Below, in pieces: positions 1,835 to 4,633 of a stretch of DNA of 64,000 nt; position 1 is the first letter of the stretch; each line of letters opens with the position of its first letter. The stretch covers positions 217,420 through 281,419 of the forward strand of contig JAXLZM010000001.1 of the NCBI GenBank assembly GCA_046350855.1, read 5' to 3'. The notes under the pieces are model-generated. The model did no database searches and had not been told where the DNA came from. It saw only the letters and a program-made list of their open reading frames with translations. The translations under genes were made by a program, and so were the position numbers. Source of the stretch: Candidatus Anderseniibacteriota bacterium (GTDB lineage Bacteria; Patescibacteriota; JAUYIX01).

Positions 1835-2895
1835 CTAATCAAGCCAAGCAGCATTTTTGAGCTTCTCGCTTAGCTTGTGCGAGTTGGCGTGTGAGAGTAC
1901 CCCTAAATACGATTGGACCGACTGATCGAGTGTTTCTCGAGAGATTTTTCCTTGTCGGTAGCGTGATTGCTGGTAGGCAAGTTTTTTAAATATTCGTTGC
2001 TTAGTCCGTGTCCGCACCCGGCGATAGTGCGGCAAGAGCACATACCCTAAAAAATCAATTCCCTGGCTGAACTTCCGAATAGTCACTTTATGGGGATGCA
2101 ACTGAAGGTGCAGTCGTTCAACCAAAAATTGTTGAATAGGCATAATCAGTCCTTGTAGATAGGACTCGCTGTCGGAGATAACCACAAAATCGTCGGTATA
2201 GCGTAGGTAGTGCTTAACGTGTAGCTGCTCTTTTATAAAGTGATCGAGCTCGTTGAGATAGACGTTAGCAAAAAGCTGTGAGGTGAGATTGCCGATTGGC
2301 AATCCAGTTGGTCGCACCCGTTGGTGTGTGTGTGTGTGTGTGTGTGTGTGTGTGTGGTGAAGCTATCAATCAACAGTTGCAAAAGCCGTCGCGTGCGATC
2401 GTCTTTTACTTTTTTGTCGAGCAGAGACCGTAAGATCTGATGATTAATAGAGGCAAAAAACTTTTTAATATCGCACTTAAGCACAAAGCACGGTCGAGTA
2501 TAGTTGCGACTCACGCGCCGCAAAATTCCCTCGAGCGCCAAAACCCCGCGGTGCGTCCCCTTACCTACTCGACAACTAAACGATCCCCAGTAAAAACTGG
2601 GTTCAAAGAGTGGGTTAAGCACTGCAAACACAGCGTGGTGGACGATCCGATCCCGCACCGTGGCCTTATGGATCGCGCGTGGTTTAGGATCTCGCAAGGC
2701 AAACGAATAGTACGGTCCATGGCGGTAACGACCCGAGCGTAACTCTCGATGTAGTTTAAAAAGCTCGGGTTCAAGCTGCCACTCAAAGCGCTGCACGTCT
2801 ACCTTACTCAATTTGCCACTTTTAAACTCATCCCAAGCCGCAAAAAGATTCTCGAGCGAAGTGATGCGTAAAAATACGTCTTCTGCTAGCCTCAT
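1835..2895 (-). CDS. diversity-generating retroelement reverse transcriptase, reading frame interrupted by an internal (TG)16 tract
   Basis: N-terminal ORF 2895->2233 gives MRLAEDVFLRITSLENL...RAIHKATVRDRIVHHAV...CFVLKCDIKKFFASINHQIL...RRLLQLLIDSFTT(HT)n, covering RT motifs 1-3. C-terminal ORF 2317->1835 gives RPTGLPIGNLTSQLFANVYLNELDHF...YLRYTDDFVV...GIDFLGY, covering motifs 4-7 and the thumb. Motif 4 'IGNLTSQ' is the DGR-RT hallmark and closely resembles Bordetella phage bRT (GIPIGSLTSQLFANVY). The two halves are in different frames on either side of the repeat. Confidence 0.85.
2325..2356. repeat. (TG)16 dinucleotide microsatellite inside the RT coding sequence
   Basis: Perfect tgtg... 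run, 32 bp, read directly. It is translated as (HT)n in the upstream RT frame. Deleting one TG unit, or adding two, would fuse the N- and C-terminal RT ORFs. Confidence 0.95.
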
Positions 2896-2898
2896 GCG

Positions 2899-3285
2899 AT
2901 GGACATCTTTGAGATACCGATTTTCAAAAAAGCCTACGAGCTCTACAAGCTTTTGTACAGCTACCGCGGGGTTATTCCTAAGGCCGACCGTTATACCCTT
3001 TGGCAGCGCTGCGAGGATACGACCTTAGACGTGGTCGACCATATTTTAGAGGCCAGTCAACTTGGCAGAACCGCTAAGCTCACCGCCCTCGAGGAGGCCG
3101 CTCGTAAACTCAATCTGCTGCGCGTTTTGGTCCGCCTCGCTAAAGAGACTACTACTATTAGCGCCAAAAAGTACATCGCCGCTCAAACTCTGATCGACGA
3201 GATTGGACGTATGCTTGGTGGCTGGCTACGAGCTACGCGCGTAGCTGCACAAACTAAACAAGCGCCCGTTTTTGAGCGCTTGTAG
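2899..3285 (+). CDS. avd: DGR accessory variability determinant (Avd), four-helix-bundle protein
   Basis: 128 aa, the same length as BPP-1 Avd. The C-terminal ...KKYIAAQTLIDEIGRMLGGWLRATR resembles BPP-1 ...HQVETAQVLIAEVGRILGSWIARVNRK. It is divergent from the RT, with start codons 3 bp apart (cat gcg atg at 2893-2901). Confidence 0.8.
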   Translation: MDIFEIPIFKKAYELYKLLYSYRGVIPKADRYTLWQRCEDTTLDVVDHILEASQLGRTAKLTALEEAARKLNLLRVLVRLAKETTTISAKKYIAAQTLIDEIGRMLGGWLRATRVAAQTKQAPVFERL

Positions 3286-3295
3286 CTTGAGGGAG

Positions 3296-3430
3296 ACTTC
3301 GGGAGAAAACCGGACGCGGTACCGTAGTTCTCGTTGGCGTTGTTGACCCAGTTGGTGTCGAACTTGACGTTGTCGTCGTTGAAGTTGAAGTACGGTGCGT
3401 TGAACCAACGCTGAGCATCGTCCGGAATTT
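3296..3430 (-). repeat. DGR template repeat (TR), sense strand = minus
   Basis: A 135-bp repeat matching 3778-3912. 26 of 28 mismatches are plus-strand T in this copy versus A/G/C in the other copy, i.e. minus-strand A to N. Many plus-strand 'gtt' triplets correspond to AAC codons on the minus strand. It lies between the avd stop and the avd terminator. Confidence 0.85.
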
Positions 3431-3460
3431 GCCGCGATCCATCTACGTCACCGAGTATTG

Positions 3461-3499
3461 AGTGCGCTTGAGCGCACCCTTTGCTCTGTTTTTAATTTG
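3461..3499 (+). terminator. intrinsic terminator downstream of avd/TR (plus strand)
   Basis: Hairpin GTGCGC-TTGA-GCGCAC followed by cctttgctctgtttttaattt. Confidence 0.5.
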
Positions 3500-3680
3500 A
3501 CAGCAGTCTCATACGAGACACCTGTGCGAGATCGCAACAAGCAGTATCTCCTCAAAAACGATACGCTCATGCAAAACGGACTTCAGCATGATTCTGATCG
3601 TTAGGTTTTAAAGAGAGATTTCGGTAAGCACGATCCGTAAACCGTACTGTATGAACCTATTCTCGTCGTGATTGTAATAA

Positions 3681-3712
3681 AGAAAAAAGGGGCCATCCAT
3701 GTGGACAACCCC
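3681..3712 (-). terminator. GC hairpin plus U-run downstream of the DGR target gene (minus strand)
   Basis: On the minus strand the stem GGGGCCATCCA-TG-TGGACAACCCC (imperfect) is followed by TTTTTTCTTTATT. It is ~65 nt past the VR/stop, and could also serve as the hairpin that some DGRs need downstream of the VR. Confidence 0.4.
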
Positions 3713-3775
3713 TCTACCCGAACGCAAGAGTCAAGCTGACGAAGACTCGAGAGTTCGAGGAACAAGAGACAAGCG

Positions 3776-4633
3776 CTACTGCGGGAGAAAACCGGACGCG
3801 GAACCGTAGAGCTCGTGGGCGTGGTGAACCCAGTAGGCGCCGAACCAGACGCGGCCGCCGCCGATGCCGAAGTACGGTGCGCGGAACCAACGCCGAGCAC
3901 CGTCCGGAACGTTGTACTCGTCGCCCGAGCAGTCGATCCAGAGGTCCTCGTAGCGCGTGAGACGCTCGGGGTGGGTCAGCAGCATGCAGCCGATGGCGAA
4001 CGCACCGAGTCCGAACTCGTTGGCCGTGAAGACCTCACGAGCGCGACGCACCGAGCGACCCCTGTGCCGCATCCCGAACTGAGCCGGGATGACCAGGGTG
4101 TCACCGGTCCGCTGCTCGCCGATCTGGGCGAACATGCTGACGGTGCGCTGGTGCTGGCGGAGACGATCCGCTCCGAGCTGGTTCTCCCGGTAGTTGTAGA
4201 GCTGGCGGGTCGACTTGATCGCGGTCAGGACCTTCTCGACCGCCTCGTTGTACGAGGTGGCGATCTTGTCCCAACGCGGGATCGCGAAGAACCCCTCGGC
4301 GCCGGTGGGCAGGTCCCGGCCAGTGTCCTTCTTGTCCGGACCGAGTCCGGGGAAGTACCTGCGCAGGATGCTGACCTGGTCGGCGACCGGCTTGACCTTG
4401 TAGCCAGCCGGGTAGACGTACGAGGAGCTGACCTCCTCGCCCGCGAACTGGTTCGACACGGACAGCCGCTTGATGGCCGCTAAGATGCTCGACTGGAGCT
4501 CGCCGCCGTTGGCGATCAGACGCTGGAGGGCATCCTTGTCGATGCTGGACTCCTTGAGCGCCTTCTCGGCGGTCTCCTTGACGAAGTTCTTGAACTGCTT
4601 GTGCTGACCAGACGTGATCGACGTCGTCGTCAT
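3776..4633 (-). CDS. DGR target (variable) protein with C-terminal VR, no obvious signal peptide
   Basis: A 285-aa ORF whose C-terminal 45 codons are the VR. A strong SD (AAGGAG) sits 8 nt before the ATG. An upstream sigma70-like promoter reads TTGACA-17-TATTTT on the minus strand. Confidence 0.8.
   Translation of the reverse strand: MTTTSITSGQHKQFKNFVKETAEKALKESSIDKDALQRLIANGGELQSSILAAIKRLSVSNQFAGEEVSSSYVYPAGYKVKPVADQVSILRRYFPGLGPDKKDTGRDLPTGAEGFFAIPRWDKIATSYNEAVEKVLTAIKSTRQLYNYRENQLGADRLRQHQRTVSMFAQIGEQRTGDTLVIPAQFGMRHRGRSVRRAREVFTANEFGLGAFAIGCMLLTHPERLTRYEDLWIDCSGDEYNVPDGARRWFRAPYFGIGGGRVWFGAYWVHHAHELYGSASGFLPQ
3778..3912 (-). repeat. DGR variable repeat (VR) at the 3' end of the target gene
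   Basis: Homologous to the TR with adenine-specific differences. It covers the last ~45 codons of CDS 3776..4633 (...YNVPDGARRWFRAPYFGIGGGRVWFGAYWVHHAHELYGSASGFLPQ*). The conserved 3' block cgggagaaaaccggacgcgg is identical in TR and VR and is a likely IMH region. Confidence 0.85.

Follow-up and report, generated by a model that had tools for sequence, protein, structure and literature searches.

A dinucleotide microsatellite in the reverse transcriptase gene of a Patescibacteria diversity-generating retroelement as a probable phase-variable switch

The prototype diversity-generating retroelement (DGR) is that of the Bordetella phage BPP-1, whose components lie in the order mtd-VR, avd, TR and brt. 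Closer to the element analyzed here are the DGRs common in the ultra-small CPR/Patescibacteria bacteria (DGR clade 2; Roux et al. 2021, PMC8144416). According to Wu et al. (2018, PMC5758913), 90% of CPR DGRs have architecture B3, i.e., the order TR-(avd)-RT in which avd is encoded on the reverse strand. Both studies compiled 'putatively functional' elements, and the parts of their text that were searched say nothing of frame-switching, homopolymers or microsatellites in either the RT or the avd gene. A DGR that retrohomes without control would continually overwrite a variable protein that already works, which raises the question of how its activity is held in check. Mutagenesis can be gated by repeats: in Salmonella and other bacteria, a mutator phenotype is switched by tandem repeats in mutL or mutS that change reversibly. 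Here, we describe a DGR in a 64-kb stretch of DNA (the window) in which the reverse transcriptase (RT) gene itself is, as assembled, interrupted by a slippage-prone repeat.

The locus is a genuine chromosomal DGR of the CPR/Patescibacteria clade. An ungapped comparison of its TR and VR on the minus strand (Table 1) gave 28 mismatches over 135 nt. Of these, 26 coincide with an adenine of the TR, exactly as counted in an earlier reading of this DNA made from its letters (the sequence-only reading), and comprise 14 A>G, 8 A>C and 4 A>T; the other 2 mismatches are T>A and C>T. The VR contains 12 adenines compared with 37 in the TR, and the adenine bias of the mismatches has a hypergeometric P of 5.7e-17. 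When the TR is read in the frame of the VR, AAC makes up 9 of its 44 codons, 25 of the 26 adenine mismatches fall at codon positions 1 and 2, and the changes from TR to VR produce 20 amino acid changes and 1 silent change. The VR does form the 3' end of ORF 3776..4633 on the minus strand, but it comprises 44 codons and the first base of the stop codon and not the 45 full codons that had been claimed. The TR is non-coding, as had been proposed, because it contains only the 44 VR-like codons, with no target-like sequence upstream; that a second paralogue of the target ends in the TR is ruled out because only target residues 242–285 match it, and no further VR-like copy was found in the 64-kb window. 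At their 3' ends, TR and VR share a GC-rich stretch of 20 identical nt followed by one difference, after which homology stops, and by analogy with Bordetella (Wu et al. 2018, PMC5758913) these ends may act as IMH* and IMH, respectively. Directly after the VR no clear GC hairpin was found, the nearest being the terminator-like hairpin at 3686–3715. Folding of the TR region gave a z of −3.4, and the hairpin at 3258..3283 may serve the TR RNA as a terminator or as another 3' element.

The protein components place the locus in the same clade. The RT matches Pfam RVT_1 (77 bits), contains the DGR-specific motif that the sequence-only reading had pointed out (IGNLTSQLFANVY), conforms with IGNLTSQ and YTDD to the [I/L]GxxxSQ palm motif and YxDD of the DGR clade, and, once its frame is repaired, is 55–60% identical to thousands of CPR DGR RTs. 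Its best relative of solved structure is the Bordetella bRT (8ub7_A, E 8e-49, compared with 3.5e-24 for a group II RT), as expected of an RT of the DGR clade, and the I181/Q187 numbering is consistent with the bRT paper. The 128-aa Avd homolog is likewise present, scoring 84.5 bits with NCBIfam DivGenRetAVD (NF033474), above the curated cut-off of 80, and matching Pfam PF22296 (bAvd) with an E of 3e-18. A phmmer search with Avd as the query gave no meaningful match. The earlier account had missed that avd lies on the plus strand and RT, TR and target all lie on the minus strand, so that the cassette reads target-VR, TR, inverted avd, RT. This layout is the known CPR architecture B3, unlike the textbook Bordetella order, and the divergent avd arrangement was found in approximately 73 of 80 related genome loci and in 64 of 68 metagenome loci. 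The window element thus resembles the CPR DGRs in gene order, orientation, host phylum, RT clade and the possession of a target of unknown function. It is like the BPP-1 DGR in its RT clade, I-G-x-L-T-S-Q palm segment, Avd, TR/VR pair of approximately 130 nt with adenine-specific differences and a GC-rich IMH-like end, and in a target protein of CLec fold (predicted for the window) whose gene has the VR at its 3' end. It differs from BPP-1, which is phage-borne, in being chromosomal, and in having avd inverted between TR and RT, so that the approximately 140-nt 'spacer' needed downstream of the TR would be antisense to avd. A sigma-70 promoter scan of positions 1700–4800 found none, and an Rfam scan at gathering thresholds together with a tRNA scan of the window returned nothing.

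Table 1. Features of the DGR cassette (positions in the window).
Feature	Position	Strand	Remarks
RT C-terminal part (palm with IGNLTSQLFANVY and YTDD, then thumb)	1835..2323	−	−1 frame relative to the N-terminal part
(CA)16.5 / (AC)16 microsatellite inside RT	2324..2356	−	33 nt; encodes (Thr-His)n; proposed slipped-strand switch
RT N-terminal part (fingers), up to the microsatellite	2357..2895	−	as assembled, continues in the wrong frame as far as a stop at 2233
avd accessory gene, 128 aa	2899..3285	+	opposite strand to TR and RT; ATG 3 nt from the RT ATG
10-bp hairpin	3258..3283	−	13 nt downstream of TR; overlaps the avd stop codon of the opposite strand
IMH*-like TR 3' end, 24 nt	3296-3319	−	from TR/VR alignment
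TR	3296..3430	−	non-coding; 37 adenines; 9 AAC triplets in the VR frame
Terminator-like hairpin and T-run	3686..3715	−	lies between VR and TR, past the end of the target gene
Target (variable protein) gene, 285 aa	3776..4633	−	N-terminal helical/alpha-beta part and predicted C-terminal C-type-lectin-like domain carrying the VR
IMH-like VR 3' end CCGCGTCCGGTTTTCTCCCGCAGT	3778..3801	−	GC-rich start; one difference from the TR copy; from alignment
VR	3778..3912	−	last ~44 codons of the target; from TR/VR alignment

The VR domain of the target was modelled with AF2. A first model from 50 close homologues had a pLDDT of 64, and of less than 50 in the VR domain, and was therefore discarded; an improved model was built from a 72-sequence alignment including 50%-cluster representatives. 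In this model the VR domain adopts a predicted CLec/FGE-like fold, in agreement with the ligand-binding type of C-terminus suggested earlier, and the variable residues are confidently modelled as displayed on a C-type-lectin fold. A Foldseek search of the PDB with the target model gave CLec matches that were sub-threshold only, and the target-family profile had no meaningful match among PDB sequences. Across the target protein family, which comprises more than 1700 clusters at 50% identity and is without a Pfam family, the columns homologous to the VR are hypervariable. For this very large CPR target family, the window supplies a confidently modelled assignment to the C-type-lectin fold. The hydrophilic N-terminus of the target (MTTTSITSGQHKQFKNF) shows no signal peptide by eye, and exact-protein look-ups of the target and of the neighbouring DUF5674 gene returned no record. 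With adenine-specific divergence, a DGR-clade RT, Avd and a predicted CLec/FGE fold all in agreement, the description of the locus as a mutagenic-homing cassette holds.

As assembled, this DGR is not complete, contrary to the earlier description: the RT is not a single intact ORF but two halves in different frames. They meet at a 33-nt CA tract within the RT coding sequence, 100% perfect and with a unit that is not a multiple of three, which the sequence-only reading had overlooked and which is the sole microsatellite of the 64-kb window. It forms an insertion of approximately 15 aa relative to bRT, in the surface loop just upstream of the catalytic segment I-G-N-L-T-S-Q. With the 16 units of the assembly, translation reaches a stop 31 codons past the repeat, and because the frame breaks at (CA)16.5, a full-length RT requires a change of one unit. 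The frame is restored by one unit fewer or two more; 12, 15 or 18 units are in frame, and 15 or 18 units give an RT of 352 or 354 aa, respectively. Otherwise the two halves of the RT are free of stops and retain every catalytic motif, and avd and target are open as well. An RT made of two separate polypeptides is ruled out, since neither the window nor the metagenome loci described below have a consistent start codon after the tract. The AC-type repeat was seen in this window only, and a scan of viral contigs for (AC)n before the PIGNLTSQ motif found none. No second full-length copy of the window species was found; the sole other contig, L001 (Logan), stops inside the repeat.

Relatives carry GA instead. 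The tract of the window is homologous in position to (GA)8–10 tracts that lie in the same RT loop, in frame, in 4 of 80 related genomes (L017, L024, L045 and L050). Metagenome assemblies, which are independent of the window and mostly Illumina, were scanned for the DNA pattern with no requirement for an open frame, and at least 120 CPR DGR RT loci had (GA)n of 15–51 nt in the same loop. The 107 scorable loci comprise 21 that are in frame, 38 that need +1 nt and 48 that need +2 nt, so that 86 (80%) are out of frame with both wrong frames represented; a distribution of about one third per frame is also expected for selectively neutral tract lengths. The RTs with the repeat span a wide diversity and are interspersed among RTs that lack it. 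Tract length varied in 7 of 10 groups of loci with 97–100% identical flanks, for example between L095 (15 nt, OFF) and L199 (19 nt, ON). PCR stutter, for its part, can change dinucleotide tracts in Illumina libraries. In another such group, L083 and L113, which come from two samples, have the same tract length (18 nt, OFF) and the same VR haplotype, and both are unlike L103 (20 nt, ON). Between L103 and L083/L113 there are 19 differences in the VR, 18 of them at TR adenines, compared with 4 differences in approximately 2.4 kb outside the VR, and the TRs are identical. Clean adenine-specific TR/VR pairs were found in 35 of 45 OFF loci and in 11 of 15 ON loci. Altogether, the relatives vary in repeat length, have both ON and OFF alleles, and show that VRs are rewritten.

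In the window itself, the frame break may reflect either a true OFF allele or a mistake in the assembly. The assembly has homopolymer indels in essential genes, with infC falling into three frames and rplT into two, so that its 16-unit count and OFF state are insecure. These three homopolymer-type breaks, all less than 1 kb from the cassette, would fit an ordinary intact CPR DGR in which the frameshift stems from faulty assembly or basecalling and the repeat is a tolerated low-complexity insertion without a regulatory role, as would the variability of the RT loop, which tolerates insertions, and the in-frame tracts of the four genome relatives. We nevertheless consider this explanation unlikely, because tracts in both wrong frames predominate in the independent assemblies, because among contigs with identical flanks the tract varies in length together with the VR haplotype (L083/L113 versus L103), because RTs that are only approximately 40–50% identical retain perfect dinucleotide tracts as long as 51 nt, and because L001 shows no indel relative to the window over 1475 nt of the cassette. 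Decay, with the frameshift as the first inactivating lesion of a DGR remnant, is very improbable: it would account for the broken RT frame and for the 2 non-adenine differences of the TR/VR pair, but the cassette is otherwise open with every catalytic motif kept, and its sole lesion is located exactly at a reversible repeat. Moreover, 67 of the 71 metagenome loci of full length have open frames on either side of the tract, OFF relatives retain clean TR/VR pairs, and the window and L001 differ at a single VR site, position 3802, which is a TR-adenine position and the sole informative VR site in that contig.

There is also the possibility that programmed ribosomal frameshifting or transcriptional slippage yields RT from out-of-frame alleles, in which case the tract would be a constitutive attenuator, as in IS-element transposases, and not a heritable switch. 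By sequence logic, a dinucleotide repeat is free of stops in every frame and would allow perfect re-pairing of the tRNA after a 2-nt slip, and a mechanism of this kind would explain why the copies are conserved even though the majority are out of frame. A programmed shift would, however, fix one wrong frame, whereas the two are about equal (38 versus 48); the same species also has in-frame alleles, and neither a slippery heptamer nor a downstream structure appears conserved across loci. We regard this explanation as quite improbable, and a directional programmed frameshift is rejected because both wrong frames are common.

The best reading of the data, which we hold to be probable, is slipped-strand phase variation of the DGR mutator, superimposed on a CPR DGR. 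Following the Bordetella model, TR-containing RNA would be reverse-transcribed by RT-Avd with misincorporation opposite adenines, and the cDNA would replace the VR, recoding approximately 20 residues on the face of the C-type-lectin-like domain. Replication slippage at the RT-loop microsatellite would shift the RT frame because the repeat unit is 2 nt, so that variants with 12, 15 or 18 units would be ON and produce the full RT and those with 16 units would be OFF, with an early stop and presumably no RT activity. Hypermutation would then itself be phase-variable, most cells having a silent RT and a locked VR, with rare ON variants rewriting the VR. It seems reasonably likely that this extends to CPR bacteria more broadly, which would gate targeted hypermutation by hypermutable microsatellites (RT-loop (GA)n widely, (AC)n here, and tracts at the avd/RT start in another subclade) as a heritable stochastic on/off switch, with most cells keeping a locked variable protein and a minority exploring. 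Phase variation of a DGR mutator by slippage is apparently unreported: our literature search on DGRs or Patescibacteria with phase variation or simple repeats, including Wu 2018, Roux 2021 and Paul and Eren 2022, turned up no description of repeats within a DGR cassette in the portions of these texts that were covered, and the main CPR DGR paper (Paul et al. 2017) may mention interrupted RTs.

The cassette resembles the SSR contingency loci of Neisseria, Haemophilus, Campylobacter and Helicobacter in having an intragenic repeat with a unit that is not a multiple of three, in the strong enrichment of repeats at one functional module and, among the GA-type relatives, in ON and OFF alleles with otherwise intact ORFs and in length polymorphism between otherwise identical sequences. 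It differs in that the hosts are uncultured environmental CPR bacteria and in that the switched gene is the polymerase of targeted hypermutation, not a surface antigen or restriction-modification enzyme, so that one stochastic diversity generator would gate another. As with the repeat-gated mutL and mutS mutators, a slippage-prone repeat would toggle mutagenesis, but that of one region of approximately 130 nt in one gene rather than genome-wide through mismatch repair. Relative to BPP-1, the RT loop before the palm motif is approximately 15 aa longer and made of microsatellite, and the RT frame is interrupted. If the proposal is correct, a slippage-prone repeat in the RT is a simple genetic answer to the question of DGR restraint, and a second-order evolvability device operates in organisms not yet cultured. 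Of the cassettes found here to bear the repeat, about four in five would escape pipelines that demand an uninterrupted RT, and annotators would call the out-of-frame cassettes pseudogenes; DGR censuses requiring an intact RT would then discard most such elements as dead. The proposal is directly testable with existing metagenomes.

In another subclade, the repeats lie not in the RT loop but at the divergent avd/RT start, as poly-G, (GT)n or (GA)n. Among the loci with poly-G junction tracts, 7 of 25 have an ATG upstream that shares the avd frame; this fraction equals chance and is as compatible with switching of the coding frame as with a non-coding role of the tract. Junction repeats and loop repeats were together in none of 79 loci. 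Overall, the density of simple repeats in the avd-RT module is 12-fold above that of the flanks (Poisson 5e-24).

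The DGR of the window is real and of a known CPR type, and is therefore ordinary as a DGR. An ungapped 135-nt alignment of minus-strand 3430-3296 with 3912-3778 shows 28 mismatches, 26 of them an A in the first copy (14 replaced by G, 8 by C and 4 by T) and 2 at non-A positions, exactly as the sequence-only reading had counted them. The first copy (TR) contains 37 adenines and the second (VR) 12, and the probability that at least 26 of 28 differences fall on the TR adenines by chance is 5.7e-17. In the frame of the target gene (ORF 3776..4633, minus strand), 25 of the 26 A-differences are located at codon positions 1-2, AAC accounts for 9 of the 44 TR codons, and the change from TR to VR alters the amino acid in 20 codons and leaves it unaltered in 1. 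Because nothing target-like was found upstream of the first copy, the TR is a non-coding template, as that reading had also held; that it is the end of a target paralogue is ruled out. Scored on non-A positions only, no third TR/VR copy was present in the 64 kb. GC-rich hairpins flank the TR (window 3462-3477 and 3258-3283), and the predicted fold of the 271-nt TR region is more stable than those of shuffled sequences (z = -3.4). The hairpin at 3258-3283 could be a shared terminator of the TR RNA and the avd mRNA. In Bordetella, approximately 140 nt 3' of the TR are required for cis-priming; by analogy, this stretch past the TR would be antisense to avd in the window.

The avd gene (ORF 2899..3285) lies on the plus strand, opposite the TR, VR, target and RT, and its ATG is 3 nt from that of the RT. 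Its 128-aa product scored 84.5 bits with the curated NCBIfam Avd model (cut-off 80) and also passed Pfam bAvd, which bears out the earlier identification of an Avd homologue. This layout is architecture B3, TR-(avd)-RT, found in 90% of CPR DGRs (Wu et al. 2018), and the inversion of avd is therefore known and not new. Of 80 related loci taken from GTDB species representatives, approximately 73 have a divergent avd that abuts the RT; a TR-like segment lies on the RT strand right past the 3' end of avd. In L003, L009, L011, L022, L026, L107, L127, L141 and L167 (related loci), the target or VR is on the strand opposite the TR and RT, or 3' of the RT; since this placement differs in several related cassettes, target orientation is not fixed in the clade.

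The cassette had been proposed to be complete over 1835-4633. The RT motifs GLPIGNLTSQLFANVY and YTDD are present, but a single intact ORF is not: the RT is split over two ORFs, broken at a (CA)16.5 tract that is the sole microsatellite in the window. Removing one repeat unit or adding two restores an RT of 352 or 354 aa, which is 55-60% identical to thousands of RTs of approximately 349 aa from Parcubacteria, Peregrinibacteria, Moranbacteria and related groups. Among solved structures, this restored RT is closest to bRT, the Bordetella DGR enzyme (8ub7_A, E 8e-49 over residues 9-341), and group II intron RTs match much more weakly (E 3.5e-24); I181 and Q187 of the 8ub7_A chain correspond to residues that the paper on the bRT structure names. 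Within the RT the tract encodes (Thr-His)n, in a loop that varies among relatives and exceeds that of bRT by approximately 15 residues.

Two essential genes beside the cassette are frameshifted in the same assembly: infC (IF3) occupies three frames, broken at a G-run near 770 and at an A-run near 940 (window 740-800 and 900-990), and rplT (L20) occupies two, broken at a C/A run near 1610 (window 1570-1650). These breaks resemble the errors that a sequencing technology makes at homopolymers; they indicate indel errors in the assembly and weaken single-base or single-unit length calls in the window. The only other contig of this species (L001; Logan, SRR26348421) differs from window 2332-3806 by two substitutions in 1475 nt and by no indel, and ends inside the tract and inside the VR. 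Because this independent contig carries at least 25 nt of the tract, the existence of the tract is secure; the 16-unit count, and hence the OFF state of the window copy (tract out of frame, RT split), is not. One of the two substitutions falls at VR position 3802, a TR-adenine site 4 nt from the contig end, and is only suggestive of VR variation. The contig ends could stem from k-mer graph branching where tract length and VR are heterogeneous, or simply from low coverage and the k=31 limit on repeats.

Repeats were also found in relatives. In 32 of the 80 loci the avd-RT module contained one or more repeats, and repeat density in the module was 12-fold that of the flanks (Poisson 5e-24). Repeats in the 80 loci were in-frame (GA)8-10 in L017, L024, L045 and L050, at the RT loop that carries the tract in the window; poly-G of 9-13 nt, (GT)9-13 or (GA/CT)6-10 at the divergent avd/RT start (the junction) in approximately 25; and a few at the avd 3' end or directly past the RT. 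Because these loci were picked by tblastn score, which favours intact RTs, metagenome contigs were searched with a frame-independent DNA pattern, (GA)7 followed after 5-35 nt by back-translated PIGNLTSQ. This detected (GA)n loop tracts of 15-51 nt in at least 120 loci. Both RT halves were placeable in 107 of the matches listed, where 21 tracts were in frame, 38 needed +1 nt and 48 needed +2 nt, so that in-frame copies made up less than one third (binomial p = 0.002); the frame calls of several loci were checked by direct translation. Among the matches listed, both RT halves were open in 67 of the 71 loci whose contig spans the entire RT, avd was divergent in 64 of 68 with enough upstream sequence, and a clean adenine-specific TR/VR pair was detected in 35 of 45 out-of-frame versus 11 of 15 in-frame loci (at least 3 kb). 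The loop-repeat RTs are highly diverse, with a median identity of 49% across the C-terminal half, and are interspersed among repeat-free RTs.

Clustering the at least 120 loci on the 200 nt to either side of the tract yielded 10 groups at 97-100% identity, and among the matches listed tract length differed in 7 of these 10. In one species, three contigs (L083, L113 and L103) have identical TRs and only 4 differing positions in approximately 2.4 kb outside the VR. The VR of the in-frame contig L103 nevertheless differs from that of L083 and L113 at 19 positions, 18 of them TR adenines. This element has rewritten its target within the divergence time of near-identical populations. L083 and L113, both out of frame and from different samples, share tract length and VR; tract length therefore travels with the VR haplotype, which argues against stutter as the source of the length differences.

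Features of the window, contigs compared for VR or tract length, and loci with junction repeats
Feature	Locus	Position or tract length	Strand
RT N-terminal 180 residues, then out-of-frame run-on	window	ORF 2895..2233	-
RT C-terminal part with GLPIGNLTSQLFANVY, YTDD and thumb	window	ORF 2317..1835	-
Perfect (CA)16.5 tract, site of RT frame break	window	2324-2356	
Terminator-like hairpin after target gene	window	3715-3686	
Hairpin 13 nt after TR, overlapping avd stop	window	3283-3258	
VR	L083	2794-2925	
VR	L113	4883-5014	
VR	L103	1249-1380	
Tract length, same flank group	L083, L113 / L103	18 nt, out of frame / 20 nt, in frame	
Tract length, same flank group	L095 / L199	15 nt, out of frame / 19 nt, in frame	
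Tract length, same flank group	L142 / L154	15 nt / 17 nt	
Tract length, same flank group	L152 / L185	18 nt / 16 nt	
Tract length, same flank group	L117 / L119	23 nt / 29 nt	
Tract length (GA part), contigs 97% identical	L151 / L190	31 nt / 27 nt	
Tract length, same flank group	L114 / L132	29 nt / at least 21 nt, contig end inside tract	
Junction repeat	L035, L042, L046, L054, L056-L058, L060, L067-L069, L071-L075, L077-L080	~12-63 nt upstream of RT match	
Junction repeat, further loci	L061, L062, L063, L052		

Slipped-strand phase variation of the RT is the simplest account of these data. Changes by a 2-nt unit would cycle the RT through three frames, one of which would yield the enzyme. Copies occur in both wrong frames, as random slippage would produce and a one-directional programmed shift would not; apart from the frame, the out-of-frame copies are intact, which is consistent with reversibility but not with decay. 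Transcriptional or ribosomal slippage may possibly make a leaky contribution. The majority of consensus sequences are OFF, which would be expected if continuous retrohoming were costly once a useful VR exists. Length-variable RT tracts very probably switch DGR activity on and off, and the RT microsatellite of the window belongs to a widespread, apparently undescribed class of such tracts: the open literature searched, which did not include the key CPR paper (Paul et al. 2017), nowhere mentioned that repeats, homopolymers or phase variation act on the RT or avd of DGRs.

The junction tracts could be another kind of switch, or an element of a promoter or UTR. Right at the divergent avd/RT start, poly-G of 8-13 nt, (GT)9-13 or (GA/CT)6-10 was observed in one CPR DGR subclade, and among the matches listed the RT start could be seen in 79 loop-repeat loci, of which 0 had a junction repeat. 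On the avd strand the tract reads Pro-Pro-Pro right before the conserved LPI/IPI start of Avd, and only 7 of 25 loci have an in-frame ATG upstream. Other repeats were (GGAT)8-11 right past the RT stop (L029 5105-5148, L033 5042-5073), poly-G at the avd 3' end beside the TR and near the RT 3' end (L006 3617-3627, L007 3630-3639, L059 911-920), (GA)13 after a same-strand avd (L065 2568-2593), a 7-mer repeat past the RT in L083/L113, approximately 1.3 kb after the RT start, and a compound (CT)n(GA)n in the RT loop of L151 and L190, with the CT part just upstream of the GA part.

The target is 100% identical to a protein from a Candidatus Andersenbacteria MAG and matched no Pfam family; its own family comprises more than 3500 listed homologues and has 1732 clusters at 50% identity. 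A first structure model was poor, and a more diverse alignment produced one with pLDDT 95.1 and pTM 0.88. Directly past the target gene, on the opposite strand, is a DUF5674 gene (window 4812-5210, Pfam E 2.5e-34), whose membership of the cassette is without support. In some members of the target family, P0122, P0123, P0125 (approximately 480 aa) and P0136, the conserved core QFGxRHRGRSVRRARE...CAGDEY occurs twice in tandem, with a VR-like tail after each copy.
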